A stretch of DNA of 64,000 nucleotides from a virus (taxonomy: Duplodnaviria; Caudoviricetes). Positions within the stretch are counted from its first letter, which is position 1; each line of letters starts with the position of its first letter. The notes under the pieces were generated by a model, which worked only from the letters and a program-made list of their open reading frames with translations, was not told where the DNA came from and did no database searches. This document shows, in pieces, positions 2,869 through 55,974 of the stretch. The translations under genes were made by a program, and so were the position numbers. The DNA lies in the IMG/VR virus record IMGVR_UViG_3300037067_027684, positions 96,001-160,000 of that record, one strand, 5' to 3'.

Positions 2869-3112
2869 GCTTAGGCCAGATCGTTTTGAATGTACTCTTG
2901 AAGAGTGTCCTCATGGGTTATTTGTGCATTTTGTCACTAAGGATGAACCAATTTTTGGCTTCAAGACAGAATATGGTGATTGTGAGTGCTTTGTTGTGTC
3001 ATCTGGTGAGAAATTTTGTAGTCGTTCCGCTGGTGATGCGACTCCTGTTCCATTGAAAAAGTTAATGGTGGTGCCTGTTGTGATTTCCAAATGCGAGAGA
3101 GAATGCGTATGA
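2810..3112 (+). CDS. Hypothetical protein
   Basis: ORF fits gene tiling; start uncertain. Confidence 0.55.
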   Translation: MILRFGIPARKLMGQGRTYELRPDRFECTLEECPHGLFVHFVTKDEPIFGFKTEYGDCECFVVSSGEKFCSRSAGDATPVPLKKLMVVPVVISKCERECV

Positions 3113-3477
3113 GAATTCTTGGTGATAGACAATTAGTTTTCGACATTGTTGAAACCAAGGCACCGTCTGGGGAATCTTGTGTTTCGGTTACTATATGCGG
3201 TATTACTGCTAAAGTGCCCAATTGTCCCTATCTTATGAGTGTTACATTTAACAATACCCCAGATGGATATCAAGAACCCTATTTCTGTATGAGGCATCTT
3301 GAAACTAAGAGAGTTCTTGGTTCTGCTTTCACACTGGAAGAATCAAATATCGGTATTTTCGCAGCTATAGCTGCTGCTGAATGGCGCAAGAATGGTAATA
3401 TAGCTGAGGCTGATGCGTGGCAATCTATTTATAATGTTTTGGGGAACATTCATCAGATGACTGAGGCTGTTTATTAA
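3109..3477 (+). CDS. Hypothetical protein with N-terminal LGDRQLVF tag
   Basis: ATGA overlap with upstream ORF; begins MRILGDRQLVF. Confidence 0.65.
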   Translation: MRILGDRQLVFDIVETKAPSGESCVSVTICGITAKVPNCPYLMSVTFNNTPDGYQEPYFCMRHLETKRVLGSAFTLEESNIGIFAAIAAAEWRKNGNIAEADAWQSIYNVLGNIHQMTEAVY

Positions 3478-3582
3478 CATATGGTTTGTGAGACGATCCA
3501 ACTAAGAATTATCAATCCTATTAGGTATAGGATGAATTTCTCGTCTTCTGTTATGATGACTTCCCCGTAGGGAGGTTTGACT

Positions 3583-4053
3583 CTATACTCTGAGCGAGAA
3601 GTTTTCCAGAAGGTGTTCTCTCTTGATTGCCCATACTTCAGAGATACCTTCTTGGAGTGCTGCACAGTGTGTGACAAGGCAGCATGCTCCGATGGAGGCG
3701 ATGATGTAGATGTCCCCTTCTTTTTCATCTTGGCAGGCCCAAATTTGTCCTTGTTGGATTAGGACGGTATCTTGTGTTGTTTGAGGTTCTTTCTTGGCGG
3801 GTTCTTTCTTTGGTTCCTTCTTTTCTTTCTTGGCTTCTACGGGGGCAGGTGGTATACTGGGGGCCTCTACTGGGTCGGGGACTGGGAGGATGACTGCACC
3901 TTGTGGCTTTAGCTTACCGTCAGCTACTTTCTGTTGCATTTGTGTGGAGAAGTTTTTGCGATGGTTTTGGACGCGGATTGCGCCAAGGGCATCTGGCTTT
4001 CTGGTAAGGGGTTTGGTGACAATTCTGATTTCATCTCTTGACATGTGCTTCAC
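3583..4053 (-). CDS. Hypothetical Lys/Pro-rich protein
   Basis: 156 aa ORF divergent from HTH gene; TAAATA upstream on minus strand. Confidence 0.6.
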   Translation of the reverse strand: MKHMSRDEIRIVTKPLTRKPDALGAIRVQNHRKNFSTQMQQKVADGKLKPQGAVILPVPDPVEAPSIPPAPVEAKKEKKEPKKEPAKKEPQTTQDTVLIQQGQIWACQDEKEGDIYIIASIGACCLVTHCAALQEGISEVWAIKREHLLENFSLRV

Positions 4054-4067
4054 CCTCGGTTTATAAT
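4038..4067 (+). promoter_or_regulatory. Sigma70-type promoter candidate
   Basis: TTGACA-N18-TATAAT upstream of the HTH gene at 4115; overlaps the start of the divergent gene. Confidence 0.5.
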
Positions 4068-4114
4068 ATTTACGGCGTAACTAAACTTAGCAAAAATACC
4101 TTTGGAGGCCAAAC

Positions 4115-4414
4115 ATGAAACTTCAAGGCTTACATAAACTCTACATCGAAGATACCAAATTCCTTGATAACAAGGTTCTGGCGGAGGAGACTCCGACTAG
4201 TACGCCTATGTCAAAGGCGCTTGCTGATTCTGGCGAGTCGCAGGCTCAGATTGCTAAGGATGTTGGTGTTCATCCTAGTACGATTTCTAGATATAAGCAT
4301 AAGGAAGCTGCTCGTAAGAAGGGGAAAGGCCGCAGACCATCTTTTGACACCTTGAAGCGTCTTTCTCAGGTTGTTGGTCGTAAGGCTACGGTCCTTTTCC
4401 CTGAACTCTCTTAG
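4115..4414 (+). CDS. XRE/Cro-family helix-turn-helix protein
   Basis: SQAQIAKDVGVHPSTISRY...RRPSFDTLKRLSQVVG. Confidence 0.85.
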   Translation: MKLQGLHKLYIEDTKFLDNKVLAEETPTSTPMSKALADSGESQAQIAKDVGVHPSTISRYKHKEAARKKGKGRRPSFDTLKRLSQVVGRKATVLFPELS

Positions 4415-4422
4415 GATGGGGT

Positions 4423-4638
4423 ATGGATCAGGAAACATCTGGGGATTCTACTAGACATAAGAAATTCCCGCGTGGGAGTAAGAAGAATCCTTGGTATGCC
4501 ATTCCAGGTCAGATGATTGATGGTAAAGTTATAGTGCAGCATTGTTTTATGTTGTTTTGTAAGGATGGTATTTGGAAAACTACAAATAGGGAGGATATAC
4601 CAAAGGATGCTGTGATTAAGGTCACAACGTCTTACTAA
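4423..4638 (+). CDS. Hypothetical protein
   Basis: ORF in tiling. Confidence 0.5.
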   Translation: MDQETSGDSTRHKKFPRGSKKNPWYAIPGQMIDGKVIVQHCFMLFCKDGIWKTTNREDIPKDAVIKVTTSY

Positions 4639-4684
4639 CTTACGATGATTTTATGGAGAGATATTACGGATTGAGGAGAAGGTT

Positions 4685-5113
4685 ATGACCATTACGTGTA
4701 TTATCTGCAAGAAACCCATGAAAATTGTTGGATGGGCGAAGGATGATCCTATTCTGGAATGTGGGCATATTGCGCATGCTCTTAGTCCTGAAGAGATTGC
4801 TAAGAAAGCTTGTATTGAGACTGAGAATACGATCCTTCAGTTGATGAAGGAACGTGGGTATACTCGTGAGCAGGCTGAGGAGTTTTTGATTTATGATAGT
4901 TTGAATGCTTATGTGAAGGTCAAGACTTCAATGAAGGATAATATTGAGCCTGATCCTTTACCTTTTGCGGTTAAATTGGACCGTGCTTGTAAGCGTAGTG
5001 AGTTGAAGAATAAGTTTAAGGGTCCTCGTTGGTTAAATAATCCTCCTTCTGGTCCTCTTCCGTTTAGTTCATGGGAGGATGTTGACGAGATTATTGCTAA
5101 GATTTGGAATTAG
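4685..5113 (+). CDS. Hypothetical protein with N-terminal Zn-ribbon-like CxxC...CxH
   Basis: GAGGAG RBS; CIIC...CGH. Confidence 0.65.
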   Translation: MTITCIICKKPMKIVGWAKDDPILECGHIAHALSPEEIAKKACIETENTILQLMKERGYTREQAEEFLIYDSLNAYVKVKTSMKDNIEPDPLPFAVKLDRACKRSELKNKFKGPRWLNNPPSGPLPFSSWEDVDEIIAKIWN

Positions 5114-5114
5114 A

Positions 5115-5324
5115 ATGAAAGCGAAAGCTACAGTATCAAAGCATGAGCATGGTACATATGGCATCGACCGAGGTGGTGCGATTCTTTATGAATCTTCGCC
5201 AGAATTGGGTGGTTTTAATCTTGAAGTTGCCCGTAGAATTGTTCAATTGGAGAATAGCGACAACCCTCCAATTGATTGGGAGGAAACTGAATTGATACTT
5301 AGAGACGAAGGATATAATCTTTGA
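5115..5324 (+). CDS. Hypothetical protein
   Basis: Starts right after the upstream stop. Confidence 0.55.
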   Translation: MKAKATVSKHEHGTYGIDRGGAILYESSPELGGFNLEVARRIVQLENSDNPPIDWEETELILRDEGYNL

Positions 5325-5328
5325 TTAG

Positions 5329-5464
5329 CTTGGCCTTAGCGGGGCGTGGTTGCTCTCACAATGCGACCTTAAGACGCCATAGCAGTGCTGACGTGCGGGC
5401 CAAATGCTGCGGTTTCGTCCGCATCTCCGCATTTGGCTCCATTGGTGCGCGTCCCGCTCCCAAG
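5329..5464 (+). ncRNA. Candidate structured RNA or leader (unassigned)
   Basis: GC-rich intergenic segment; closing stem AGCGGGGCGTG/CGCGTCCCGCT; internal stems GGTTGC/GCGACC, GCCAAATGC/GCATTTGGC, TGCGG/CCGCA. Confidence 0.5.
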
Positions 5465-5468
5465 ACTT

Positions 5469-6137
5469 ATGAATAATGGTATTGTCTACGTAGCGACAGG
5501 GAAGTTTAATTATGTAGTGTCGTGCGGTTGTAGTATTCTGAGTGTCAAGCGTTTTAGCGATGTTCCTATCACAATATTAACTGATTCGCCTGTTGTTGAG
5601 GCATTGTCCTCAATTGCAGATGTTAAAGTTGTTAAAATTCCCGATGACCCAAAGTTGATTTATCCTTCTCGTTGGGTTAAGACTCAACTCGCTAAATTTA
5701 CACCATATGATAGGACTCTATTTTTAGATTCTGATATCTTATGTGTTGATAGGTTTGATGAATTATGGGACTATTCTGACGATCTTATTATTGCTGCTGA
5801 TGTCTATCCTGTTAAGTATATTGATGGTGTTCGATATGCTTATTATAATACTGGTGTTATTCTTTTTGATAGGAATAAGACTGTTGATTTGTTTGAGGAT
5901 TGGCATAATAGGTGGTTGGAGACTGGTAAGTGGGATCAGCCTTCTTTTGCTGTGGCCTTGAGTAAATGGGGTGGTACTCGCAACTTAGTGGATAAATTTG
6001 TTTATAATTGGAATGTTAGGGATGCTCGTTCGAAATTTGTGCATTATTGGCATGGAGTGTGTAATTTGTCTGTTTTTCCTAAGGAGGATGTGTTGCGGGT
6101 TATTTCTATGCTTGATCCTGATGGTTCGTTAAGATAA
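5469..6137 (+). CDS. GT-A glycosyltransferase (GT8/nucleotide-diphosphosugar transferase-like)
   Basis: GIVYVATG, TPYDRTLFLDSD (DxD), YNTGVILF, WDQPSF, FVHYW. Confidence 0.85.
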   Translation: MNNGIVYVATGKFNYVVSCGCSILSVKRFSDVPITILTDSPVVEALSSIADVKVVKIPDDPKLIYPSRWVKTQLAKFTPYDRTLFLDSDILCVDRFDELWDYSDDLIIAADVYPVKYIDGVRYAYYNTGVILFDRNKTVDLFEDWHNRWLETGKWDQPSFAVALSKWGGTRNLVDKFVYNWNVRDARSKFVHYWHGVCNLSVFPKEDVLRVISMLDPDGSLR

Positions 6138-6628
6138 CTTTCATCAACCAGATGTTTAACTAACTTTTCACACTGCTTGGTTTCTTCTTTTGTTACTTCA
6201 GTCATCATTTCATGGTATTTCTGTTTGCTATTAGAACCATGAAAGTTCTGGCTACCATTCCAGATTCTGTGATGGTCTTTATATGCCAAGAACAACATTT
6301 TGGTGTGATTATGGTCATTCCACAAGAACTGTATATTTTTGAAATTAGAACTTATTAATTGTACTTCTTTAATGATTCTATCTTCATTATTGTTTGGTGG
6401 CGTCATTATGATTGCTAATCCGCCTGGAGTTTGATTCATCAAATGAATAAATTTCTGGATGGGATTCATCTTGTGAAATGGTGGTATTTTTTGAGTTCCG
6501 TGACAATCGTGCCAATTTAGGAAAGCTGCATGGAAGTTATAAGTGGTTAATACGCCATGTTCAGGCGGTTCAACATAGACCAATTCAGCGAAATATTCCC
6601 AATAGTCTGGATCTTTATAGTCGTTCAT
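6044..6628 (-). CDS. Phospholipase D-family (HKD) nuclease-like protein
   Basis: NHTKMLFL...IWNGSQNF = HxK...GSxN single HKD motif. Confidence 0.6.
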   Translation of the reverse strand: MNDYKDPDYWEYFAELVYVEPPEHGVLTTYNFHAAFLNWHDCHGTQKIPPFHKMNPIQKFIHLMNQTPGGLAIIMTPPNNNEDRIIKEVQLISSNFKNIQFLWNDHNHTKMLFLAYKDHHRIWNGSQNFHGSNSKQKYHEMMTEVTKEETKQCEKLVKHLVDESYLNEPSGSSIEITRNTSSLGKTDKLHTPCQ

Positions 6629-6637
6629 TTTCTTTTA

Positions 6638-6697
6638 GTTTCCACGGAGGAAAGACTACTTTGTCCAGGTGTCGGACTACATTTCCTCCGTGGAAAC
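6638..6697. repeat. 16-bp perfect inverted repeat (hairpin; terminator or processing site)
   Basis: GTTTCCACGGAGGAAA ... TTTCCTCCGTGGAAAC, with inner GTCC/GGAC stem, between two minus-strand genes. Confidence 0.7.
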
Positions 6698-6710
6698 CCT
6701 TTGAAGCTGT

Positions 6711-7508
6711 TTAGACTGTTGCCGTTGCGGGTTCGGCAGGCGCGGGAGCCGGTGCTTCAGGCGCAGGAGCAGGTGCGGGAGCCGGTGCAGCGCTCTCCTT
6801 AATCTCCTGATGCTTGAAACCCTTCTTTTCGCGTTCTGCGATTACCTGAGCAGCATCCTTCGTACCCTTGAGGACTCGCGTGCTGTGTCCACCAGCCTTG
6901 GTTTCGATCTTGAGGCTGACTCGCTGGCCCTTCAGAGGGTACTTGCTTTCACCGTTCGCTCCACCCAGTACGTTGTTGGGGTAGCGGTAGGCATTGATGA
7001 AGTAGTAGTATCCACCCTTTTCATCAACTGCCAAGAAGGTGTGAAGCTTGTGGGTAGTATGGTCGAATTTACCACCCTTGGAGAGGAGTACTCCACCGTG
7101 GGCTTTGGCCCAGGCGTTTACGTCGAAGGGAATAATCTTGGATTTTACTTCCTTCTTCGCTTTCTTCTCTTTTGGTTCTTTCTTCTCTGGCTTGGTCGCC
7201 ATCGTCGTTCTCCTTGCCTCGCGGCTTTCTTGCTTCGGCTTCTGTGCCTCTGCTTTTGGTTCTTTGGTCTCTTTCTTGACCGGTTTTTGTGCTTCGGCTT
7301 GTGCTTTTTGCTCTGCTGTTTGTTTGATTACTTCAGCCACTCTCGACTTATGTACGCGGAAAATCACCCCTTTCGTGTCTTTGACGCGTAGGGCCTCGCG
7401 GTTGACGACGGCCACTACTAGGTATGGTTCATCAACCACTTGGCCATCGGGTGGCCCCTTCAGCTTCACAACATCGCCGTCACACATTACTGGTTTGATG
7501 TCGGGCAT
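6711..7508 (-). CDS. Hypothetical protein: SH3/KOW-like N-terminus, Lys/Glu linker, C-terminal domain paralogous to 7985..8494, Ala/Pro tail
   Basis: AGGAG RBS before ATG 7508; second in-frame ATG at 7202 with AAGGAG RBS. Confidence 0.75.
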   Translation of the reverse strand: MPDIKPVMCDGDVVKLKGPPDGQVVDEPYLVVAVVNREALRVKDTKGVIFRVHKSRVAEVIKQTAEQKAQAEAQKPVKKETKEPKAEAQKPKQESREARRTTMATKPEKKEPKEKKAKKEVKSKIIPFDVNAWAKAHGGVLLSKGGKFDHTTHKLHTFLAVDEKGGYYYFINAYRYPNNVLGGANGESKYPLKGQRVSLKIETKAGGHSTRVLKGTKDAAQVIAEREKKGFKHQEIKESAAPAPAPAPAPEAPAPAPAEPATATV

Positions 7509-7601
7509 TTGGCTGATATCTCCTGAAATCAATCTGCCGCCTTGTATCAAATCACTTCCACCTGTCAAGTAGGGGTGATTGCTCTCTTGTGTGGAGACTA
7601 A

Positions 7602-7629
7602 CCTCCCCAGAAGAGGGAGGAAGTGCCAC
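7602..7629 (+). promoter_or_regulatory. CCTCCC-N16-TGCCAC motif copy 1
   Basis: cctccc cagaagagggaggaag tgccac; intergenic. Confidence 0.65.
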
Positions 7630-7691
7630 TATGTCGTTGAGGACCACCAGCGGACTCCTCAGAAACATCCTCCTGATAGCGCCGATTGGTA

Positions 7692-7719
7692 CCTCCCCAT
7701 AGAGGGGAGGAGATGCCAC
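7692..7719 (+). promoter_or_regulatory. CCTCCC-N16-TGCCAC motif copy 2
   Basis: cctccc catagaggggaggaga tgccac; intergenic. Confidence 0.65.
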
Positions 7720-7946
7720 GACGACGGCGGAGGAAAAGAGGAAGCGCGTAGATGACGGTCAAACAAGAAAGGGGTTAAGATGAGTAGGATGAAGTCTTTC
7801 TCAGTAAGCTTTGGCGAGGGATTGAAGGACGTGCAACTAGACAATTCATCTTTAAGGAGGGAAGCTTGTGCGATAAATTAAATTTCTAAATTGTCTTGCC
7901 AATTATTGCCGGATTCGATACGAATCGATACCAATTACCGGACGAC

Positions 7947-7960
7947 GCGCCTACGGGCGC
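7947..7960 (+). other. C(UACG)G tetraloop hairpin in 5' leader
   Basis: GCGCC-TACG-GGCGC just upstream of the AAGGAG RBS of 7985. Confidence 0.55.
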
Positions 7961-7984
7961 AAAAACCCCAAAAGGAGAAACACA

Positions 7985-8494
7985 ATGAGTACTACGTTTG
8001 GTTGGACCAAGGTCGGGGCGTGCAAGATTGTGGCTCAGGATGAAGCTCGTGTTCGCATTCTGCTTCCTGGCCGCAAGAATCCGCAGTGGGTCAGCAAGAC
8101 TCACCTTCTGCCGGTTCCCGCCAGTCTCCGCCTCCTGAAGAAGGCTGAGTTTGACCAGAAGTGCGGCTGCACGTCCTTCGTGGATGTGAATGGTCAGAAG
8201 GTTGAGACGTACAACGTGTACGGTTCTGTGGGCAAGTACCTGAAGTCTGGCATCAGCGAAGGTCTGGACGCCAGCGCTCATCACCGCCGCGTTTTCCTCT
8301 CCGAGAAGGGTTTCGTTCGGGCCAAGGGTGCGGTCCGGAATGCTAAGGACCTTGGTGCGGTTCTCTTCAACTACCAGAAGGATGGTTACAAGATCCTTTC
8401 GGGCGAGAAGAAGGCCAAGGCTCCGAAGATTGTTCCGGTTATCGTTGAAGCTCCGGTTGCTGCTCCGGTTCCCGAGGCTGTTCCCGCCGTCTGA
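7985..8494 (+). CDS. Hypothetical protein, paralog of the divergent 6711..7508 gene
   Basis: Strong RBS; GC-richer codons; shared LLxK..FD...F..V....N.Y and KxG[YF] pattern; AP-rich tail. Confidence 0.8.
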   Translation: MSTTFGWTKVGACKIVAQDEARVRILLPGRKNPQWVSKTHLLPVPASLRLLKKAEFDQKCGCTSFVDVNGQKVETYNVYGSVGKYLKSGISEGLDASAHHRRVFLSEKGFVRAKGAVRNAKDLGAVLFNYQKDGYKILSGEKKAKAPKIVPVIVEAPVAAPVPEAVPAV

Positions 8495-8514
8495 AGTTAC
8501 TCCTGAGGAAGAAT

Positions 8515-8541
8515 GGGGTGCCGCCTGTCTGGGGCACCCCA
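8515..8541 (+). terminator. Hairpin after 7985..8494
   Basis: TGGGGTGCC...GGCACCCCA stem; no U tract. Confidence 0.5.
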
Positions 8542-8592
8542 AGTCGTATTCATCTTGACGGCATGAAGTGAACCCCTTGAAGGAAAACAGTC

Positions 8593-8919
8593 ATGGAAGA
8601 GAAGACTCCAATTCCCGAGAATTGGCTCTACGAGGTCGGCATTGAAGATCCTCGTCCCCCTTCTCCCGAAGAATTTGCAGAAGCGCTACGAACTCTGGCT
8701 GATTACCCGACTCTGTTTGCATTGATTTTGGATTTGAAGCTTGCAGTTCAGAGGATTGAGAATTGTCCTAAAGCCCCGCCAGAAATGTTGAAGCTGGTGA
8801 AGGCATATAAGCCTTGTATTAATTGTCTAGTTGATGATGCTAAGCTTCTTCTTGAGAAGATGCGCCGTGATCATGAGAATGGTCAAGGTATCAGGAACAA
8901 GGAAGATTCAAATGGATGA
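8593..8919 (+). CDS. Hypothetical protein
   Basis: AAGGA RBS; 108 aa. Confidence 0.65.
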   Translation: MEEKTPIPENWLYEVGIEDPRPPSPEEFAEALRTLADYPTLFALILDLKLAVQRIENCPKAPPEMLKLVKAYKPCINCLVDDAKLLLEKMRRDHENGQGIRNKEDSNG

Positions 8920-9172
8920 CGGAGCAGATGTTTCAATCCGATGGGTCAGGCATAGGAAGAAAGGTCATATTCCCTATGGAACTATGGCTTGGAATAAACG
9001 TTTCCTTGGAAAATGGCATGCCAAAATTGACGGCGAACCAAGAACATGTTGCGGTCGATATAGTTTGAACCCAATGTGTATGGCCACCAGCACCAAGAAA
9101 CGTCATCTCTGTGAACGATGTCGGAAGGCAATTGTGACACTCCACAAGGCAATGAGCGCTATGTGCTGCTAA
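8912..9172 (+). CDS. Hypothetical Cys/His-containing protein
   Basis: Overlaps the upstream stop; WH...CG...CERC. Confidence 0.55.
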   Translation: MDDGADVSIRWVRHRKKGHIPYGTMAWNKRFLGKWHAKIDGEPRTCCGRYSLNPMCMATSTKKRHLCERCRKAIVTLHKAMSAMCC

Positions 9173-9181
9173 TGGGGGATT

Positions 9182-9493
9182 ATGATGGCAAAACATAAAA
9201 CATTCCCAGAAACACTCTGGGAATCTGTGGAAAGAAACAAACAGAACGAGCAGAAGCAGAACGAGCAAAAACAAGAGGTAATAGCCCTAGCAGGCTACGC
9301 TCTTTTTCTTGGACGTTGGGATCAAGACGAATTGGCCGACATATGCAAATTAAGTCTTGATGATCTCATTCCAGACGGAATTAAAATGGAAGATGCACAA
9401 GATGCTGCTATACGAGCCAGTAATAAAATTTTCATGCGAAGTAAGAAGCTTTACACTATCCTAAAGCGTGTTGCGGCTTCACACTGTGATTAG
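9182..9493 (+). CDS. Hypothetical protein
   Basis: 103 aa; KQNEQ tandem duplication. Confidence 0.6.
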   Translation: MMAKHKTFPETLWESVERNKQNEQKQNEQKQEVIALAGYALFLGRWDQDELADICKLSLDDLIPDGIKMEDAQDAAIRASNKIFMRSKKLYTILKRVAASHCD

Positions 9494-9692
9494 AGGTATC
9501 AAAAATATGTCGGAGGTAATACAAATGGCATCGAAATCACTGAATGTTGACGAAAGCAAATGTTTGGTCGCCGTTCGTGATCGAAAAACCAAGCAAATGC
9601 GACAGTGTCGTAACAATCGTGCAGATGGAAAGTGTTGTGTTATTCACGCAACAGCACAAGATTGTGGCGATACTTTGACGTTTATTAAGTAA
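9468..9692 (+). CDS. Small Cys-rich hypothetical protein
   Basis: C...QC...CxxH pattern; likely start at an internal ATG. Confidence 0.5.
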   Translation: MLRLHTVIRGIKNMSEVIQMASKSLNVDESKCLVAVRDRKTKQMRQCRNNRADGKCCVIHATAQDCGDTLTFIK

Positions 9693-9702
9693 TCACCGTA
9701 TT

Positions 9703-10524
9703 GTGTTGTCCAACGTATATAAGAGCATGAGAGACAACACGAATCGATACCAAAATCTCCAACAAGAAAAGCAAGCTGCTGCTCCCTTATGTGCCTGTGG
9801 TTGTGGTCAAAAGGTCCTTTGGAATTTACATGGGCATTCCTATAGGAAGTATTTGTTCAATCATCATCAGAAAAGAATCTTTTCCGAAGTCCTCTCTCCA
9901 AGACAAGAACAAATAGTGAGAGGAACCCTACTCGGAGACGGAAGTCTCTCTTTCATAAAGAGTAGAAAGGGACCAGAATTAGGTGTTGCTCGATTGAGAG
10001 TACGACATTCAACTGTTCGTCAGAAGGATTATACTTGGTGGCTTTATGAGGAACTTAGGAATTTCACTTCTAGTCCCCCGAAAGAGGGGCCAAATAAAGG
10101 CTTTGGAGAAAGAGTTATTGCATTCAGTACGTGTTCTACCAAACAACTATATCAAATAGGCAAAGAAATTTACTCCCCAGTTAAGGGAGTGACATGGGAT
10201 TATTTACAAAAACTCGATGATCTTGGTTTGGCGATCTGGTTCATGGACGATGGATCAACAACCTCTTTTGCCACACATTCGTTTACGGTTCAAGAGAATG
10301 AAATAATTCAGCGTTGGTTTAAAGAAAGATGGAATTTAGAATGCCTAATACAAATAGACGAAAGAGTTAATAAGCCATTTATTCGCTTTAGACAACCCAA
10401 TGTCTATAAATTACATAAGATTGTTTTTCCACATGTATTACCAAGTCTTAGATATAAATTCAAATATTGCTTGCCATACCTACTGGCCGGAAAAGCATCT
10501 GTTTCAGAAGGTCTTCAAAGCTGA
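9703..10524 (+). CDS. Free-standing LAGLIDADG homing endonuclease with N-terminal CxCGCG motif
   Basis: GTLLGDGSL and LAIWFMDDGS motifs; A-rich composition distinct from flanks. Confidence 0.85.
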   Translation: MLSNVYKSMRDNTNRYQNLQQEKQAAAPLCACGCGQKVLWNLHGHSYRKYLFNHHQKRIFSEVLSPRQEQIVRGTLLGDGSLSFIKSRKGPELGVARLRVRHSTVRQKDYTWWLYEELRNFTSSPPKEGPNKGFGERVIAFSTCSTKQLYQIGKEIYSPVKGVTWDYLQKLDDLGLAIWFMDDGSTTSFATHSFTVQENEIIQRWFKERWNLECLIQIDERVNKPFIRFRQPNVYKLHKIVFPHVLPSLRYKFKYCLPYLLAGKASVSEGLQS

Positions 10525-10582
10525 TTTAGCCGTAGACACCAGATCACCCCACGATACCACGTCAAACCGAAAGGAGGAGTCC

Positions 10583-11779
10583 ATGCAAGCGCCTATCGAG
10601 ACGCGTGATTATCAACAGCGTATTATCACCAAAGTTCTTGCTGAATACAAAAAGGGACTTAAGTCAGTGTTATTGGTAAGTCCTTGTGGGTCCGGGAAAA
10701 CGGTAATGGGATTAAGTATTCTTAAAATTCTAGAAGAGCTAGATCCGACTCTGACATTTGGTTGGGTGACAATGCGTAGGAAGCTGTTGCAACAAGCATT
10801 CATAGAAAATGAACGCATTGGTGTTAAGAACATAGAATTCATTTCTATGTTCGATAGGAATCCACCGAAGAAAAGGTTTCTGGTGATTGATGAAGGGCAT
10901 CATGCTGCAGCGGCTACTTGTGCTAATCTTTATTCTATTATGGGCATTGAACGTTCGTTGGCTCTAACTGGCACTCCATTCCGTACTGACCGAATCAAGC
11001 TTTCTTTCGAAAAGATCGTGGATGATTGTGGTGTTCGTTTCCTGATTGAGAAGGGTTACTTGAGTCCGTATCAGCAGTTCGTGATTCCTAAATGGACTCC
11101 AGATACTGTTGCTAAGATGTTTCTACAAGACCCAAAACGTTGGGGTAAGTCTGTCATCTATATGAAGACAGTAGAGCTATGTGATGAAGTAGTCCGTCTC
11201 CTTGATCTGGGTGGCATTAGATCCAGAGTGATTCATGGTGGACAGTCGAATGAGACTCACGAAGAAATCTATGAATCCTTTGAATCTGGTGAGACACAAG
11301 CGTTGGTAAATGTCTACCTTCTCACTGAAGGTTTTGACCTTCCATCGCTGCAAACTGCCTGGATTAGAGATAGTGGGAAATTAACCTCTATTCAAATGGG
11401 AGGGAGAACGCTTCGTAAGGACCCGAATAATCCTGGTAAGATTGCGAATATTGTGCAGTCCGAGGAGACTTGGTTCCCTTATACGAAGGTGGCTAAGCCT
11501 AGTGGTGAGTTTGTGTGGCAGGATGAGGAATGGCGCTCGATTGAGGCTAATGAGCGGGTTGCTAATGTTAGTGATATGGTTCGCAATGAGATTTTGACGT
11601 TGCCTGTGGAGCTTCCGGCTTATTTGGAGTATGGTGCTGCTGGTTCTATTCGGGTGAATAAGAAGGGTAAGGTTACGGTGCGGAAGTCTCGTAAGGTTGT
11701 GTCTATGGTGGCTTCAATGTTGGGTGCTTTGGACGCTGGTGAGTTTGACGATGATGGGGATTTGGAGGCTGCGGTGTGA
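10583..11779 (+). CDS. Superfamily 2 DEAD/DEAH-box (ResIII-like) helicase
   Basis: RDYQ, SPCGSGKT, VIDEGHH, LTGTP, LTEGFDLP, QMGGRTLR; AAGGAGGAG RBS before ATG 10583. Confidence 0.92.
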   Translation: MQAPIETRDYQQRIITKVLAEYKKGLKSVLLVSPCGSGKTVMGLSILKILEELDPTLTFGWVTMRRKLLQQAFIENERIGVKNIEFISMFDRNPPKKRFLVIDEGHHAAAATCANLYSIMGIERSLALTGTPFRTDRIKLSFEKIVDDCGVRFLIEKGYLSPYQQFVIPKWTPDTVAKMFLQDPKRWGKSVIYMKTVELCDEVVRLLDLGGIRSRVIHGGQSNETHEEIYESFESGETQALVNVYLLTEGFDLPSLQTAWIRDSGKLTSIQMGGRTLRKDPNNPGKIANIVQSEETWFPYTKVAKPSGEFVWQDEEWRSIEANERVANVSDMVRNEILTLPVELPAYLEYGAAGSIRVNKKGKVTVRKSRKVVSMVASMLGALDAGEFDDDGDLEAAV

Positions 11780-11830
11780 AGCTCGTGATTATTATGGGTT
11801 GAAAATTCCAAAGGGAGAAGGGAGGTAGGC

Positions 11831-11983
11831 ATGTGGATTGTCATTTTGCTGGCCATAATCGGGGTTGCCTATGTTCTTCACTCTGTTGATAAGAGTGGGA
11901 TGCTAACTCTCTTGTTTATGGTTTTGGCCATGATTATTGCTGGAATATTCCGAATTTTAAATGTGATAAATACCAGCCTCTAA
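11831..11983 (+). CDS. Small two-TM membrane protein (not in ORF track)
   Basis: GGAGG RBS; MWIVILLAIIGVAYVLHSVDKSGMLTLLFMVLAMIIAGIFRILNVINTSL. Confidence 0.6.
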   Translation: MWIVILLAIIGVAYVLHSVDKSGMLTLLFMVLAMIIAGIFRILNVINTSL

Positions 11984-12061
11984 GCGCAACAGTTTTCTGC
12001 TGTGCTTCCGGCGATACTCCGTAGGAGAGGGTGATGGGGAGAGACTCCCCAAGAGGAGAAA

Positions 12062-12283
12062 ATGTCAAAACCCAAACCAAAATTGAAGAGACTGAGGTTA
12101 GAGCAGTTTGCTAATGACTTTATTGATAGGTATAAGCATATTGTAGATGAATTCATTGATGATCTTGATGTTATGAATAATGTGGTTTATGACGATGGAT
12201 CAGATGATGAACAGATTGAGAATCGAAAGCAAGTTCGTATTTTTCTAATCGATCGGCTCACAACTCACCTCAAGAATCGTTGA
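12062..12283 (+). CDS. Hypothetical protein
   Basis: GAGGAG RBS. Confidence 0.65.
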   Translation: MSKPKPKLKRLRLEQFANDFIDRYKHIVDEFIDDLDVMNNVVYDDGSDDEQIENRKQVRIFLIDRLTTHLKNR

Positions 12284-12296
12284 AGAGGAGGAAGAA

Positions 12297-13457
12297 ATGA
12301 CTGTTACACTTCCGACGTTTGAGTACAGCGTTCTGAGGATCAAGGATCTAGAAGTTGTAAGCACGATTTCTCCTGAGGGAGCGATTGTTGTAGACCATAT
12401 TAAAACTGGTGGCAAGATTCTAAATCCTTCTCGGAGGTTCTGGGATAGTCTTTGCGCTCGTTTTGGTTTCGGTCCAAGTATTTTCAAATATTTCTCTCAT
12501 GCTGAAGTTTTCCAACGGATTAGTGAGAAATCGTCCAAGGACATGGTTCGGCTGGCTGTCCAGATGACCCCTTATGGTTTTGAGTCTCCGAAGGACTGGA
12601 AGCCGAAGTTACTGGCGCTTTCTAGCCCTAAGGGTAAGGCGGTTTTGACCAATACTGACATGATTCAGGTTTTTGAGGAATTGCCCTTGCTCTCAATGAC
12701 TTATCATGATGGTATTGTTACTTCGACTCATCCTTGTCGGAATGTTATGAGTTGGGATATTGAGGGTGCGACTTTTACTTCGCAGTTGATGATGGAGACT
12801 CCTCTTGATGGTTATGGGAAGCCGACTGTTTGGTTGTCTGTGGCCAAGGAACTTGGGGGTGAGGATGGTGTTACTTTTACTGCTTATTCTAAGAAGTTTA
12901 GGAGTGGGATTATTCTTGGCGATAAGAGTGCCGCCTTTACTTTGAAGCGGGCTGTTGAGTCATTTTCGAATGAGGATGGTTTTGTGGCGTTGAAGCAGCG
13001 TATGGAGGCTGCTACTAATTCTTGGTCTTCTGTTTCTGAGTGTGTTCGTTTGACTCGGATTTTGTATTCTCTGAAGAATTCGGATTTCAATCCCGATTAT
13101 GCGTTGACTGTTGTTCCCAATGGCGTTGACTCTCTTGAGGGGACTCTTCGGAATCGGTTGATTTCTGCTCTTCATGAGATTACTGGTGATATTAGGACGC
13201 TATATGGTGTGGCTCAGTTGGATTCGATTTCTGAGAAGAAGATGAAGTTGCTTCCTACGAAGTGTAGGATGTTTACTTTGATGGATTTTGCTACTGATAT
13301 TGCTACTCGTCAGGTTTTGCCTGAGGCTGCTCGTCGGCTTCGGTCTTATTTTGGTGAGTTGATTTCTAATGAGTATGATTTGGAATCTTCTGGTGAGAAG
13401 TTTGGGTCGTTCCAAGACTTTGTTGATAAGTCTGAATTCAAGAAGGAGGCGGTATAA
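12297..13457 (+). CDS. DUF932-like protein
   Basis: RFWDSLCARFGFGPSIFKYFSHAEVF, ETPLDGYGKP, EYDLE resemble a family I recall from planctomycetes. Confidence 0.6.
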   Translation: MTVTLPTFEYSVLRIKDLEVVSTISPEGAIVVDHIKTGGKILNPSRRFWDSLCARFGFGPSIFKYFSHAEVFQRISEKSSKDMVRLAVQMTPYGFESPKDWKPKLLALSSPKGKAVLTNTDMIQVFEELPLLSMTYHDGIVTSTHPCRNVMSWDIEGATFTSQLMMETPLDGYGKPTVWLSVAKELGGEDGVTFTAYSKKFRSGIILGDKSAAFTLKRAVESFSNEDGFVALKQRMEAATNSWSSVSECVRLTRILYSLKNSDFNPDYALTVVPNGVDSLEGTLRNRLISALHEITGDIRTLYGVAQLDSISEKKMKLLPTKCRMFTLMDFATDIATRQVLPEAARRLRSYFGELISNEYDLESSGEKFGSFQDFVDKSEFKKEAV

Positions 13458-13672
13458 TGGATCGTTCTCCACTTGGGTGTGCAATTGCACAACACTTGAC
13501 TGCTGCTCTTCTTGGTGTTGATACGAGCAATTATGAGAGTCGTGCTACGGCAGTCTATGCTGAATGTTCGGGTATTGCTAGGGAACAAAAGGTTGGCGAT
13601 TGGATTGAGATGCCAGATGGGACTGTTTACACAATGACGTTTAAGCCAAAGAAAGGAGATTCGAATGCCTAA
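13457..13672 (+). CDS. Hypothetical protein
   Basis: TAATG coupling, GGAGG RBS. Confidence 0.6.
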   Translation: MDRSPLGCAIAQHLTAALLGVDTSNYESRATAVYAECSGIAREQKVGDWIEMPDGTVYTMTFKPKKGDSNA

Positions 13673-13955
13673 AACAGCCAAAGAACTTGCTATTGGGATT
13701 GTTAAATGGTTAGAGCTTGATCCCGACATGAAGTGTGAGATCGTTGAAAAGAAAGATGGGTCGATTGATATTAACCTTGCCTCAGAGGGAGAGGAATTCT
13801 TCATCCAGGACTTTGCTGAATCTGGCATGAATATTAAGCAGATTGGTTCTTGTAAGCATGACGGTCGAACTGAGAATATTTTCGAAGTTAATGGCGACCT
13901 TTTCGGCGAGAATGCCAAGGCGATTGCGATTTGGGTAATTGGAGACACCTTCTAA
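13665..13955 (+). CDS. Hypothetical protein
   Basis: AAGGAG RBS. Confidence 0.65.
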   Translation: MPKTAKELAIGIVKWLELDPDMKCEIVEKKDGSIDINLASEGEEFFIQDFAESGMNIKQIGSCKHDGRTENIFEVNGDLFGENAKAIAIWVIGDTF

Positions 13956-14491
13956 TGAATACTTTCACCCAATGCGCGGTCTGTGGACAGAAATGCGAAG
14001 ACGGATCATTGTGTGGAACATGCGCAAAAACTCCTTCAATGCGAAAATTAACTGACCGTGAAGTTCTCGATCTGGCAACCAAGATTAAGCATCGCCAAAT
14101 CATGTTGGCTTATGGGGCCTATTGTCGAATGCTTTATGGTTCGAAAGCTGCGATTTTTGAGATTAGTCTCCAAACTGAAGTGGATTCCCATAGTGGTGAA
14201 TATTCCAGGATCAAGCGCGTTTATGTGAAGGATGATCACGGTGATATTCTACAACCAGATTTCTCTTTGCCTTTTTGGTTGGACATGGCAAAGGAGGGTG
14301 GTAGAGTTATTGCTGGTAAGGCTGTAATTCCAAATGATTGGGTTGCGAACATTATTAATGAGTTGATTGATGATAGTTGTCTTCCGATTGTGGTTGAGAA
14401 TATTGAGCATCACCTTGATGAACCTGAGACTCTTCCTGATGTCTTTGTGGAGGATGAGCCATGCAATTGCAAGGCTTCACAACCTACTTGA
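13955..14491 (+). CDS. Hypothetical protein with N-terminal Zn finger
   Basis: CAVC...CGTC; TAATG coupling. Confidence 0.65.
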   Translation: MNTFTQCAVCGQKCEDGSLCGTCAKTPSMRKLTDREVLDLATKIKHRQIMLAYGAYCRMLYGSKAAIFEISLQTEVDSHSGEYSRIKRVYVKDDHGDILQPDFSLPFWLDMAKEGGRVIAGKAVIPNDWVANIINELIDDSCLPIVVENIEHHLDEPETLPDVFVEDEPCNCKASQPT

Positions 14492-15186: not shown

Positions 15187-15196
15187 GGAGCTGAGA

Positions 15197-15677: not shown

Positions 15678-15708
15678 GATAAATGGGTAGAGAAAAGGAG
15701 ATTCAAAA

Positions 15709-24103: not shown

Positions 24104-24117
24104 ACTCAACGAGGACG

Positions 24118-24140
24118 GGGTAGCATTTGGCTACCCTTTT
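24118..24140 (+). terminator. Intrinsic terminator candidate
   Basis: GGGTAGC-ATTTG-GCTACCC-TTTT. Confidence 0.6.
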
Positions 24141-49369: not shown

Positions 49370-49518
49370 AAATTACCGAGATGTTGATGGTCGGAGAGAA
49401 AGTTCGTCCTGCTAATATTTCAGAGGAAGTTGTGAGACTGTTGCTTGAGAAGGAAAATGAGTATGTTATGGTCAGGGATAGAGATGGTATTCTTCGTATC
49501 TTGAAGGCGAAGAAATGA
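49366..49518 (+). CDS. Small hypothetical protein (50 aa, not in ORF track)
   Basis: ATGA coupling at both ends. Confidence 0.5.
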   Translation: MKITEMLMVGEKVRPANISEEVVRLLLEKENEYVMVRDRDGILRILKAKK

Positions 49519-50084
49519 GTTACACTTCTCAAACTGAGGCTGGTTTAAAGTCTCTTCTTATGGATTTATTAGAACAGAAACCCCTGGGTTTCGTTTGGGG
49601 TTTCATGCCTTATGAATCTGAAAAAGAGATTACGATTGCTAAGGGCATGATTGGTCGAACTCGAATTCAAAATCATCCTCCGCTTGTGGTGCCAGTTGAT
49701 CATACTTTCTCACTCAAGCATTTGCTTTTGGATTATGAGCAACCAATACGACCAACAACATGGTATCACGTTTTTGTGATTTGGGATGATGAGGGGAATT
49801 ATGATTTTCGGGCAACTAGATTCGTTCATTGGAGTGATACTCAACATCCTGGTAATGATCGGTATATGAGGTTTCCTTATTATCGTCATATTGCGTCTTA
49901 TTTGACTGATGCTTTTGGGAAAGTTCGTCGGGCTAATACTGACGAATTGCCATTTGCTTGGACACCTCCTGAGGCTTTGGCATCTCCTCCTAAAGCTTGG
50001 ACACCTTACACTAACGCCAAGCCAGAGGGGTCATTTAATACCCCAGAGATGGGTGATAGAACACTCGAACTGGAGGTCTCATGA
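49515..50084 (+). CDS. Hypothetical protein with C-terminal MGDRTLEL tag
   Basis: Ends PEMGDRTLELEVS after a Pro-rich linker. Confidence 0.7.
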   Translation: MSYTSQTEAGLKSLLMDLLEQKPLGFVWGFMPYESEKEITIAKGMIGRTRIQNHPPLVVPVDHTFSLKHLLLDYEQPIRPTTWYHVFVIWDDEGNYDFRATRFVHWSDTQHPGNDRYMRFPYYRHIASYLTDAFGKVRRANTDELPFAWTPPEALASPPKAWTPYTNAKPEGSFNTPEMGDRTLELEVS

Positions 50085-50683: not shown

Positions 50684-51053
50684 GTTGTGTGTGTGTGAAA
50701 GGTGTGGTGGGTACTTTTCTTCAGAAATTCTGCAGAAGGATGTTTATAAATATATTGTTTTCATCAATAAGAAGCCTATATGTTTGAGATGTGCGAATAC
50801 TGCTCATCCTCGTTTAGGGGTAAAGTCTTTAATTAAATGTACTGCTGCCATTTGCGAAGAGCGTGCTTATGGTTGTATCAATACTGTTAAGTTTAAGTGT
50901 TGTTGTGGTATGTTACTTTGTAATAGTTGTGTTGAAGCTCATTTTAAGTGGCATAATTCAATTTTAGAGACTCAGAAGTCTAAAGATCAAATTGAGGATG
51001 TTGAGACAGAGCCTCTTTTCAATATGGCCAAGAAGCTCCAAAATGATTTATAG
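50676..51053 (+). CDS. Cys-rich Zn-finger protein
   Basis: Multiple CxxC; start approximate. Confidence 0.5.
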   Translation, partial: LDELCVCERCGGYFSSEILQKDVYKYIVFINKKPICLRCANTAHPRLGVKSLIKCTAAICEERAYGCINTVKFKCCCGMLLCNSCVEAHFKWHNSILETQKSKDQIEDVETEPLFNMAKKLQNDL

Positions 51054-51345
51054 ATTGAACGAGGAAAAGACAGATGAATTCCTACGGACCTGCCTTATTA
51101 ATAATGGGATTTATGCTTTTTGTAAGGAAAAATTAGGTTCTAGTAGAATTGGGCAGTTATATGATGGTGAATTTACTGATTTCTTTGCATTGCGAGAGTT
51201 GAGTGATGGTGAATGTCAGATGGACAGGGACGAGATTTGGTCACTTAACACGATGTGGGTTGGGTGGATGTTTGATCGAGTTTATGATGTGGTTGAGGAT
51301 GATAATACTGTGACTGAGCTTGGAGATAGAGACCTTGAACTTTAA
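51043..51345 (+). CDS. Hypothetical protein with C-terminal LGDRDLEL tag
   Basis: Ends VTELGDRDLEL*. Confidence 0.7.
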   Translation: MIYRLNEEKTDEFLRTCLINNGIYAFCKEKLGSSRIGQLYDGEFTDFFALRELSDGECQMDRDEIWSLNTMWVGWMFDRVYDVVEDDNTVTELGDRDLEL

Positions 51346-53619: not shown

Positions 53620-53665
53620 AATATATTCCCTGATCCAAATATAATAGGGATTAGGGATAAAAACA

Positions 53666-55123
53666 ATGAGAATAGTAACATCATTTTGTTTCAACTTGTC
53701 GGGACTTGTGGCGTATGTTGATAATACATCAGAACCATTTCGTGTCTCTTACGACAGTAGTTCATCTGAGAGATTATCTGGCTCTATATTCTCGAATCTG
53801 ATTGGTTCGAATTATCCAGATATTGTTGATTTTCAGAATAGTTTGTTGCCTGCAGTTTGGAGTTTCGCACCAATAAATGTAGGCAAAGAAATTAGGGATG
53901 TTACTATTCATCTTTATGGTACGGTTGCCTATGATGACAATACTGTTGAGATGTTTGATATTGAGAGGAATCGTAGTGAAACTGTTAATCATAACAGTAA
54001 TTATGGCTTATCTGACATTACTGAACAATCGGATACGAATTCATTATTGACTAACATTATTTCCCCAATTAATGATGGAGCAGTGGTTATAGACAATGGT
54101 ATTGGTAGGGATTGGGTTAAGGTCCTAGAAGTTCCGCGTACTCCAGGTGATAATATTCAGGGGTATCTTTATCTTGAAGGTGGTATATATTTCTTCATGA
54201 TCGAGAGGTATGATGTTGACTGGAATACAATTGGATCTTCTGTTTATAGGTCAACAGATGGTGTGAATTGGACGAATGTCCTAACGACAACTGGGTTACA
54301 TGATTTGGTGAAATATTTGGGCAATGGAACTTACTTGGTAAGTGATGCGCAGAATTATGTTGTTTACAGATCATTTGATTATGGAGTGACATGGGCTACT
54401 ATACCTGGTGTTGTTGATGTTCGTTACTTTGCTACTGATTTAAATGGGGTTGGAATTATTAGTGGTGATAATATTTATAGGACTGCTAATTATGGTTTAA
54501 CTTGGACTGAGGTAGTTCATGGTACTGGGTATTACTTCACTGATGTTATATATTCCCCATTAAGACCAAATGAATATTTGACCACAGGCACTGCGGGCAT
54601 GGGGTTGTCAACTGATAAAGGACTCACTTGGTCTAGTCTAAATTCGATTAGCGGACTAGTTCCCCTCTACCAAGGCAGTACTTTGTTTATGATTTCTGGT
54701 GATGGGACTCCTCAGACTTTGATCAAATCGACTGATTTTGGTCGGAATTGGACAACCATTTTCTCAATTCCAGCAGTGGCGATGGGTTCTATTTGGCTGA
54801 CAAGTATCTCGGATGATGTCACTGGTTTTGTTCATTTAAATGCTCTTGATCCAGGTTGGACTAACACAGAAGCTACTTTCTATTTGATAACTAATCAAGG
54901 CGATAAATTGACGGTCATGAATACGTATTCAAATCTCGCGCAGTTGGCGGCGAACGGTTTTATAGTTTACTTTGAACTCGCAGGTCAGCAAAGCATACTT
55001 AGGTCTAGTGATTTTGGCAAAACGTATTCTTCGCATTTAGATGCGTACAATTTGCGTTTGATAGCTGGTAGGGTGTTGTACTCTGATACTACGACATCTG
55101 ATGTGCTTTATTATGCAACTTGA
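53666..55123 (+). CDS. BNR/Asp-box beta-propeller protein (likely virion-associated)
   Basis: Repeated SxDxGxTW boxes (STDGVNW, SFDYGVTW, TANYGLTW, STDKGLTW, STDFGRNW, SSDFGKTY). Confidence 0.8.
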   Translation: MRIVTSFCFNLSGLVAYVDNTSEPFRVSYDSSSSERLSGSIFSNLIGSNYPDIVDFQNSLLPAVWSFAPINVGKEIRDVTIHLYGTVAYDDNTVEMFDIERNRSETVNHNSNYGLSDITEQSDTNSLLTNIISPINDGAVVIDNGIGRDWVKVLEVPRTPGDNIQGYLYLEGGIYFFMIERYDVDWNTIGSSVYRSTDGVNWTNVLTTTGLHDLVKYLGNGTYLVSDAQNYVVYRSFDYGVTWATIPGVVDVRYFATDLNGVGIISGDNIYRTANYGLTWTEVVHGTGYYFTDVIYSPLRPNEYLTTGTAGMGLSTDKGLTWSSLNSISGLVPLYQGSTLFMISGDGTPQTLIKSTDFGRNWTTIFSIPAVAMGSIWLTSISDDVTGFVHLNALDPGWTNTEATFYLITNQGDKLTVMNTYSNLAQLAANGFIVYFELAGQQSILRSSDFGKTYSSHLDAYNLRLIAGRVLYSDTTTSDVLYYAT

Positions 55124-55186
55124 TTAATATATTTAGTCTTTTATTTCGAGATACTTTGCTGGCTTAGTATCCCTACGGACGAGAAA

Positions 55187-55206
55187 AGAGCAGATTTCTC
55201 TGCTCT
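55187..55206. terminator. Hairpin at the +/- convergence point
   Basis: AGAGCAGA-TTTC-TCTGCTCT. Confidence 0.55.
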
Positions 55207-55627
55207 ACTTCTCTGCCTCTGTAATTGCTTCCTTTAAACGCTTAATGACAACTGGGAGCGTCGTGTCAATGTCACGTGGCTGCTTATTTAAACCGCCCTC
55301 TAGGCAGACTATTGAAACTTTCGCTAGGTCGATAAAACGCTTCTTGTCAGCTTTGGAGCACCTTGGTAAGTTAGAAGCGGTAGCTGCGTTGCAGTCGGCT
55401 AAATACAATGCCACAATCATCCAGTATTCTAGTTCCTTGCTACGAGGCTCTGGCTTAAAGCGCCATTCATAACGGCTGTCATCTTTGTTGAGTTGACTAA
55501 GAAATTGGTGTACCGGAGAAACAATTGAGTCGTCTTTGACAATGTTGTAATCTGTCCAATCATCGGTTGGATGGAAATCAGCAACCTTGTCAGCTAGTTC
55601 CTTGCGCCTTCGGTATTGTAGGGTCAT
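55205..55627 (-). CDS. Hypothetical protein
   Basis: Coupled ORF. Confidence 0.6.
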   Translation of the reverse strand: MTLQYRRRKELADKVADFHPTDDWTDYNIVKDDSIVSPVHQFLSQLNKDDSRYEWRFKPEPRSKELEYWMIVALYLADCNAATASNLPRCSKADKKRFIDLAKVSIVCLEGGLNKQPRDIDTTLPVVIKRLKEAITEAEK

Positions 55628-55974
55628 TCAAATCCCTCCTCGTATTCTCGTTTCCTTTTATTCAAAATATCACAAATAGGACATTGGAGTTTATTGAAGA
55701 TTTCTGAATTTGGATTCTTTTTAACGATCATAGGATAACTGTAATATTCATTCTCAAAACGAATGCGATAATCCCTATCCCGCTTAGGCTGGAAAAACGC
55801 AGTATTAGCTCCCCCACTAACCTCTCCACAGTCTATGACTGACGGCGGAGAAACCAAGAAACCATCTGCATCCGTTGAACCTCCACCAACCAGAGTCCTA
55901 TAGACTGTTTGTGGAGGTTTGGGTGGTTCAGGAGGAACTCCTAGATCTAGTTCCCTATCGCCTAACTCAGGCAT
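55624..55974 (-). CDS. Hypothetical protein with N-terminal LGDRELDL tag
   Basis: Starts MPELGDRELDLG, then a Pro-rich linker. Confidence 0.7.
   Translation of the reverse strand: MPELGDRELDLGVPPEPPKPPQTVYRTLVGGGSTDADGFLVSPPSVIDCGEVSGGANTAFFQPKRDRDYRIRFENEYYSYPMIVKKNPNSEIFNKLQCPICDILNKRKREYEEGFE

Follow-up and report, generated by a model that had tools for sequence, protein, structure and literature searches.

The window analysed here is a 64,000-nucleotide stretch of a Caudoviricetes genome, positions 96001-160000 of the 246,684-bp virus record IMGVR_UViG_3300037067_027684 (42% G+C); coordinates are those of the window unless marked as genome. Several of its proteins carry, at or near one end, a short peptide of 8-10 residues with an invariant Arg, hereafter the tag, and genome-wide the tag was found at either end of ~20 proteins, most of which are unrelated to each other. 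An earlier note, made from the letters alone, had reported ten copies in nine proteins of the window. All ten stretches translated as claimed, and their flanks place them at the ends of open reading frames (ORFs); at 24077-24103 the tag is present but reads DARTLDIG before the stop codon, the leading A lying one codon upstream. The count itself was incomplete, as LGQRHLNF had been missed in the window and at least ten more copies, including those ending GERHLEL and GVRSLDI, lie outside it. The copies are listed below; here and throughout, endings are quoted up to the stop codon.

3118-3141, plus strand: N-terminal LGDRQLVF, a weaker variant ending V-F, on a 122-128-aa protein (ORF 3091/3109-3477)
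15160-15183, plus strand: ending LGDRVLSL of a WGR-protein paralogue of 241 aa (14461-15186)
20999-24103, plus strand: Ycf46-like AAA+ ATPase with an intein, ending ADARTLDIG; tag at 24077-24100
25041-25058, plus strand: DRELDL, a weak copy 21 residues before the C-terminus of a DUF6744 protein (24156-25124)
28804-29559, plus strand: WGR protein with internal MGNRALDL (29401-29424) and ending LGERMLEL (29533-29556), its tail of low confidence in the AlphaFold2 model
41018-41041, minus strand: LGQRHLNF, 8 residues before the C-terminus of a 106-aa ORF (40991-41311)
41368-41391, plus strand: N-terminal (MEQ)LGERKLAF on a GHKL ATPase (41359-43089)
50049-50072, plus strand: C-terminal MGDRTLEL, followed by EVS and the stop codon, of a 189-aa protein (49515-50084)
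51319-51342, plus strand: ending LGDRDLEL of a 117-aa protein (50992-51345)
55942-55965, minus strand: N-terminal (MPE)LGDRELDL(G) on a 116-aa protein (55624-55974), the tag leading into a Pro-rich linker
Outside the window, genome starts: 59546, 171077, 171413, 178558, 179368, 179685, 186610, 191500 and 233837

When a strict pattern, [LMIV]G[DEN]RxLx[LIFMV], was applied in six frames to the entire genome, 17 matches were obtained, each inside a long ORF. Sixteen of them were terminal, lying 0-3 residues before a stop codon or 2-3 residues past a start codon. In a greedy set of 457 genes the pattern matched 14 times, 13 of them terminally, whereas 200 residue-shuffled proteomes gave a mean of 0.28 matches (maximum 2) and 0.06 terminal ones. 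The scan and shuffle test that the note had proposed thus bear out its description of a portable terminal motif at the protein level. Looser scans added LGQRHLNF in the window, the ending ARTLDIG of the ATPase, and the endings LGCRQLEI, GERHLEL and GVRSLDI elsewhere in the genome. At least eight copies in the genome are N-terminal, with the consensus M-(x)-E-L-G-D-R-x-L-D-[LIF]-G ahead of a Pro-rich or polar linker. At C-termini, a linker precedes E-[LMI]-G-[DE]-R-x-L-[EIS]-[LM] and 0-3 trailing residues. The Arg is invariant, and the position after it is variable (T, E, K, V, M, D, H or Q).

As had been noted before, codons differ between copies: among the 18 copies compared, the same codon was used at 31% of the positions with identical residues, and Leu was encoded by 5-6 different codons. 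Because the codons vary between copies, it is the peptide that is under selection. Most of the N-terminal copies that were checked have a GGAG-like ribosome-binding site closely 5′ of them. We also considered that the tag might be a translated DNA element or a ribosome-binding-site artefact at gene ends; this was ruled out by the separate GGAG sites 3′ of tags and by the varied codons. Searches with back-translated ELGDRxLDLG in IMG/VR and MELGDRxLDLG in JGI metagenomes and GTDB genomes returned three GC-rich chance matches or none.

The carriers had been described as unrelated except for the two WGR-type proteins. All-against-all BLASTP recovered the pair formed by the WGR protein and the 241-aa protein but added a second one outside the window, a 131-aa and a 108-aa protein; these were the only two paralogue pairs. 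The orphan carriers received no family from PHROGs or Pfam, the homologue search with the 116-aa carrier recovered only the protein itself, and no DUF6744 homologue was present in the fetched loci. Of the 98 homologues of the GHKL ATPase, 97 begin ~25 residues later, near an NWFxISxxGW block, and lack the tag. The tag of the GHKL ATPase is retained only in a 96%-identical relative, and one homologue of 37% identity starts MRELDL. In the stretch read from the 96%-identical relative, a 250-kb metagenome contig, the three tags expected there are all retained. These comparisons show the tag to be an add-on to otherwise conserved domains. Public phage collections gave no match by megablast (8.5 kb) or by tblastn with the WGR protein and one remote match by tblastn with the GHKL ATPase; IMG/VR look-ups with the GHKL and WGR proteins gave none.

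The presence of the same peptide on many proteins with flexible linkers could also mean that tags associate with each other as short strands, paired by Arg-Asp/Glu salt bridges, to build a network or condensate. The alternation of charged and hydrophobic residues in the motif and the two copies on the WGR protein would suit such pairing, but most carriers have a single copy and could not form a network, and there is no computational or experimental sign of self-association. We therefore consider this explanation very improbable.

Several other observations were made on the carriers and their surroundings. The phage genome encodes a tRNA with a CUA anticodon (amber suppressor type) at L001:301-374 (plus strand), and 73 of 359 longer genes, including two tag carriers, end in TAG. 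Read-through of the WGR stop codon (29557-29559) would add 23 residues and make the terminal tag internal. In the 96%-identical relative, two IS605/TnpB (Cas12f-like) genes (L011:15169-17928) lie amid homologues of the window genes at ~46-48 kb, where the window has none.

Two gene modules with DUF1257 and DUF2997 proteins are present in the window. Module 1 is divergent and occupies 20999-29559 on the plus strand. Module 2, on the minus strand, is of the canonical type: DUF1257, DUF2997 and RASHVEP are followed there by the tagged 116-aa protein. Its position after the RASHVEP gene is the operon slot held by the WGR protein in relatives. The small proteins of the two modules are as follows.

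26177-26452, plus strand: small, divergent DUF1257-like protein of module 1; candidate component of the receptor
27577-27771, plus strand: small DUF2997-like protein of module 1, its tail rich in His; second paralogue at 28416-28595
55993-56229, minus strand: 78-aa RASHVEP protein of module 2, a candidate receptor component, 51-57% identical across relatives
56726-56926, minus strand: canonical DUF2997 protein of module 2
57288-57641, minus strand: canonical DUF1257 (Ycf35-type) protein of module 2

Look-ups of DUF1257 and RASHVEP in the ESM Atlas returned only their own unnamed families. The DUF2997-like paralogues (27577-27771 and 28416-28595, plus strand; L029:8162-8380) have the His-rich tails HTHNEQHTHVEGHVHD and HVHSHGHTHTDTHVRQH, which might bind metal. 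The intein in the Ycf46-like AAA+ gene (20999-24103, plus strand) contains a LAGLIDADG homing-endonuclease domain and spans protein residues ~347-828; several representatives of the ATPase family have inteins at the same place.

Homologues of the WGR protein with 38-45% identity have retained both tag copies in the tail, KFAA[MV]GxRxL internally and KFA[SA][LMV]G[AG]RxL[EQTD][LI] at the C-terminus, up to the stop codon; F241, G245, R247 and L249 of the window protein are invariant. On the contigs of these homologues, the WGR gene comes last in a compact operon, after the genes for the AAA+ ATPase, DUF1257, DUF2997 and a RASHVEP protein of 78-98 aa. The ATPases of related phages end AGRQLEL, AGRQLDL or FSRKMDF, compared with ARTLDIG in the window. 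WGR proteins with a tag ending are those of the window, P0100-P0106 and L030.

Similar endings are frequent in the ATPase family as a whole. Among 150 representatives of at least 39% identity, taken from an exhaustive search with the ATPase as query, R-x-[LIVM]-x-[LIVFM] lies no more than three residues from the C-terminus in 47, compared with 1.9 for shuffled tails. In 29 of the 47 it forms the extreme C-terminus. One to three extra residues follow in 18 of the 47. Gly is the commonest residue directly before the Arg, and Asp or Glu are the commonest between the two hydrophobic residues. We defined the tail tag of the Ycf46 module as R-x-[LIVM]-[DE]-[LIVMF] no more than three residues from the ATPase C-terminus, and the window ATPase has such an ending. 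A survey of 80 loci from bacteria and archaea, with 1,374 ORFs in all, found the tag in its strict C-terminal form on eight ATPases, where 1.8 were expected. Two other proteins had it, a WGR protein and an unrelated protein from Dactylosporangium roseum; no N-terminal copy was found in these loci. Chromosomal cyanobacterial Ycf46 proteins (L043-L105) have an almost invariant ending, SVAEYQR[ML]EF, which is related to the tag. A DUF1257-like ORF lies ~150 bases downstream of these cyanobacterial genes.

The Dactylosporangium roseum protein (L088:10251-11084) has 277 aa, ends AGRVLDF and is encoded directly after DUF2997 on the chromosome. Its N-terminal part has transmembrane helices, and a Pro-rich linker and a helix-hairpin-helix domain of ComEA type are also present. 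It appears to be a second type of DNA-binding client in the usual WGR slot. Operon proteins other than the ATPase that lie beside DUF1257/DUF2997 and bear the tag are thus the WGR protein, this protein and the 116-aa protein of the window. The module is also present in cultured phages, for example Rhodobacter phage RcKickapoo and Rhizobium phage vB_RleS_L338C, in which the ORF after the ATPase ends GRKITI and RRAVKL, respectively.

On the strength of these sequence comparisons, the tag cannot be regarded as peculiar to this phage: the core also ends the ATPases and WGR proteins of distant relatives, and it is an old feature of the Ycf46-type module that the window phage did not invent. What is special to the window phage is the spread of the tag to many more proteins, the longer consensus and the use of N-termini.

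The phylogenetic distribution also bears on the idea that the tag is a processing site, cut by a caspase-like protease after the invariant Arg, or a signal for sorting to the capsid or another phage compartment. Prokaryotic caspase homologues commonly cleave after Arg or Lys, and encapsulins and microcompartments use terminal targeting peptides with linkers; both are precedents for this idea. Moreover, a caspase-like Peptidase_C14 protein (291 aa, E 5e-23) is encoded at L006:6978-7850 (plus strand; genome 166978-167850), amid minus-strand genes with N-terminal tags. Nevertheless, the same tail is found on ATPases encoded by bacterial and archaeal chromosomes and plasmids, which have no capsid. 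Cleavage would remove only 4-6 residues, and no caspase gene was seen in the module loci examined. We give processing or sorting very little credence.

In an AlphaFold2 model of an intein-free homologue of the ATPase (predicted local distance difference test, pLDDT, 94.8), the last ten residues (501-510) had no secondary structure and a pLDDT of 65. Residues 1-490 aligned with the two-ring AAA proteins Rix7, NVL, Pex1/6 and VAT (Z ~25), and by sequence the active ring resembles p97 D2. Residues 1-215 form an alternating alpha/beta domain (pLDDT >90) that aligned with the D1 ring of Rix7, NVL, Pex1/6 and VAT, and the alignment over both rings therefore identifies these first 215 residues as a D1-like pseudo-ATPase ring rather than a separate cofactor-binding N-domain. 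In the model, an ATPase without such an N-domain would be compatible with recognition being delegated to small partners. The WGR protein was modelled with a WGR domain, a second beta-rich domain, a long helix and a tail of low confidence, in which both tags had pLDDT <50. The tags of both proteins are thus located in flexible tails. Foldseek matched only the WGR domain of this model (2ra8), and the remaining rows were noise. Co-folding of ATPase residues 1-490, DUF1257 and DUF2997 with the WGR tail gave no verdict (score 0.00, controls not run) and is uninformative either way.

Taken with the recurrence of the tag in the same operon, these features lead us to a reading that we hold with slightly more belief than doubt: the tag would be a short linear peptide by which proteins are tethered to the Ycf46-like AAA+ module, and the proteins that bear it would dock on a module component that does not. 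In its ancestral form the peptide is one or more small residues followed by R-x-L-[DE]-[LIF]-COOH at the end of the flexible tail of the ATPase, and it is also present on the DNA-binding partner encoded last in the operon, usually a WGR protein with two copies. All tag-bearers, among them the ATPase, would share one docking site. The likeliest site is the obligate pair of small proteins DUF1257 (Ycf35 type) and DUF2997, perhaps with a contribution from the 78-aa RASHVEP protein, so that the ATPase and its clients would be gathered on one hub. In the lineage of the window, the peptide was sharpened to E-L-G-[DE]-R-x-L-[DE]-L-(G) and appended, through Pro-rich or acid-rich linkers, to either terminus of ~15-18 further unrelated proteins. 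These proteins, which include the GHKL ATPase, coiled-coil proteins, a zinc-ribbon-like protein and many orphans, would thereby be recruited to the module. Binding by the tag, the identity of the receptor and the effect of recruitment are what we infer here. The suggestion that this module is the hub had been made before, and it was the right place to seek the partner, given that the tag is the ancestral ending of its ATPase and WGR protein; the hub protein itself is still a candidate.

Several results weigh against tethering to the module. In the raw counts, a phi-[DE]-phi C-terminal ending and a DUF1257/DUF2997 neighbour were both present at 45 loci, both absent at 17 and discordant at 13. 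The co-occurrence of tail and small partners nevertheless failed a phylogeny-aware test, which had no power, with four independent pairs on supported branches. One ATPase without the tail has DUF1257 and DUF2997 4 kb away, and at L052, L073 and L102 a tagged tail occurs without a detectable partner. N-terminal copies were found only in the window phage, except for the homologue starting MRELDL. In the 10-20 kb read from each related phage, only the ATPase and the WGR protein bear the tag, and the expansion is therefore documented in one lineage and its 96% relative.

The main rival to tethering is direct recognition by the ATPase ring. The tag would then be a substrate signal read by the AAA+ ring, tagged clients would be unfolded, disassembled or passed on for timed removal, and the tail of the ATPase would act as an auto-inhibiting pseudo-substrate. 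Tags at extreme termini beside flexible linkers would suit the start of threading by an unfoldase. The ATPase belongs to a Cdc48/Rix7-like unfoldase clade, some members of its family are fused to Lon or trypsin-like peptidases, and the pLDDT of its tail is moderate rather than very low. On the other hand, it would be awkward for the enzyme to carry a degron on its own tail and for a third of the family to conserve it. The phage genome encodes no ClpP peptidase partner, and the WGR protein, a conserved and stoichiometric-looking operon member with two tags, resembles an adaptor more than a substrate. We regard recognition by the ring as rather unlikely. The degron that the earlier note had listed among its alternatives likewise fits poorly with an ATPase that is itself tagged.

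Another alternative is that the tag docks proteins on a hub of the host, such as the sliding clamp, RNA polymerase or a chaperone, instead of on a module component. Clamp-binding motifs are also known to function at either terminus, several carriers are DNA-related (the WGR and GHKL proteins and the actinobacterial helix-hairpin-helix protein), and a few copies read R-Q-L-x-[LF]. However, the position at which a clamp motif requires Gln is the variable one of the tag, next to the invariant Arg, and the association of the tag with one operon holds in bacteria, archaea and phages whose hosts differ widely. We find a host hub quite improbable. Of the specific partners proposed before, the sliding clamp is a poor fit for the variable Gln position, and no match to the beta-clamp family PF00712 was found in the phage genome; a search of the genome for a T4-type clamp also gave no match, but its control was silent as well. 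The motif QL[SD]LF/QLxLxL resembles the tag in docking many unrelated proteins on a hub from either terminus and in its alternating Leu residues. It differs in that its conserved first Gln corresponds to a variable position in the tag, that the invariant Arg and the acidic residue are foreign to the clamp motif, and that the tag tracks the Ycf46 operon and not replication genes. An R-x-I-x-I motif as in small heat-shock proteins, also proposed before, fits no better. Their I/V-x-I/V element, through which they bind the alpha-crystallin domain of Hsp20, is replaced by a core of L-[DE]-L with an invariant Arg two residues upstream, and no HSP20 domain is encoded in the phage genome (host Hsp20 was not examined).

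Within the framework of tethering, the tag is an analogue of several docking systems of AAA+ ATPases, namely the HbYX/GQYL, p97-tail, MIM-MIT and SspB XB systems, and a member of none. Like the HbYX/GQYL tails by which the proteasome activators PAN/Rpt, archaeal Cdc48, Mpa, Bpa and PA200 dock, it is a short ending common to an ATPase of the Cdc48 clade and to unrelated proteins, with one receptor. Unlike them, it has the sequence R-x-L-[DE]-L, tolerates 1-3 extra residues and lacks the hydrophobic-Tyr-any signature at the extreme C-terminus with a free carboxylate, as no copy contains a Tyr. Because the window phage has N-terminal copies, a free carboxylate cannot be essential, and no proteasome-like partner is encoded by the phage. 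The tail of p97/Cdc48 (DDLYG), which is bound by PUB and PUL domains, similarly leaves the last ring of a two-ring ATPase as a flexible segment, with a short cofactor-docking peptide at its end. In that case, however, the sequence is different and the partners have a domain that binds the peptide, whereas here they carry the peptide of the ATPase themselves; no PUB or PUL domain was detected.

The MIT-MIM system of Vps4 also has many clients with one terminal motif and key Arg and Leu residues, and its AAA ATPase belongs to the same broad COG (SpoVK/Ycf46/Vps4). MIMs are longer amphipathic helices (~12 residues), unlike the tag core of 5-8 residues bracketed by Gly, and the N-terminal MIT domain and helical MIM that define the Vps4 system have no counterpart here. 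The window-type ATPase has the D1-like ring instead of a three-helix MIT bundle and carries the tag itself. The XB peptide of SspB, which tethers an adaptor to the N-domain of the unfoldase ClpX, is a terminal peptide on a flexible linker as well. It is restricted to one adaptor family and has another sequence and receptor, in contrast to the ~20 carriers and the use of either terminus seen here.

A broader version of tethering, about which we are doubtful, is that the peptide is a general plug-in code, in which R-x-L-[DE]-L at a flexible terminus would dock a protein on the small-protein hub, where it would be presented to the two-ring ATPase. If so, the phage would wire ~20 of its own proteins, through either terminus, into one remodelling or assembly centre, and the clients of an orphan ATPase family that extends from chloroplasts to phages would be readable directly from genomes. 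Ycf46, Ycf35 (DUF1257) and DUF2997 are conserved proteins of plastids, cyanobacteria, plasmids and phages, and a shared terminal peptide would offer a handle on their mechanism and predict receptor and clients. The window phage has the largest client list among the genomes examined and is the only clear case with N-terminal tags. As a compact means of recruiting arbitrary proteins to one hub, the tag could be a useful tool, and the presence of the module and tagged neighbour genes in cultured phages makes bench tests feasible. The earlier note knew of no description of the tag, and literature searches likewise found none published, and the literature on DUF1257, DUF2997, DUF6744 and Ycf46 yielded no mechanistic account of the module or of the tail.

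Pooled Pfam scans recorded further content of the genome, without mapping matches to individual ORFs. For window 16438-64000 together with L006-L007, the matches included Multiubiquitin, NADAR, a PolX-type polymerase, peptide deformylase, an HD domain and SLOG/DprA-like domains. For the left part (G000 1-112218, comprising L001-L005 and window 1-16218; 140 ORFs), they included Tad6 (a Thoeris inhibitor), Mom, dUTPase and sugar-nucleotide enzymes. The same left part contains a complete-looking type I-E CRISPR-Cas set with matches to Cse1, Cas7/CT1975, Cas5, Cas6e and Cas3.

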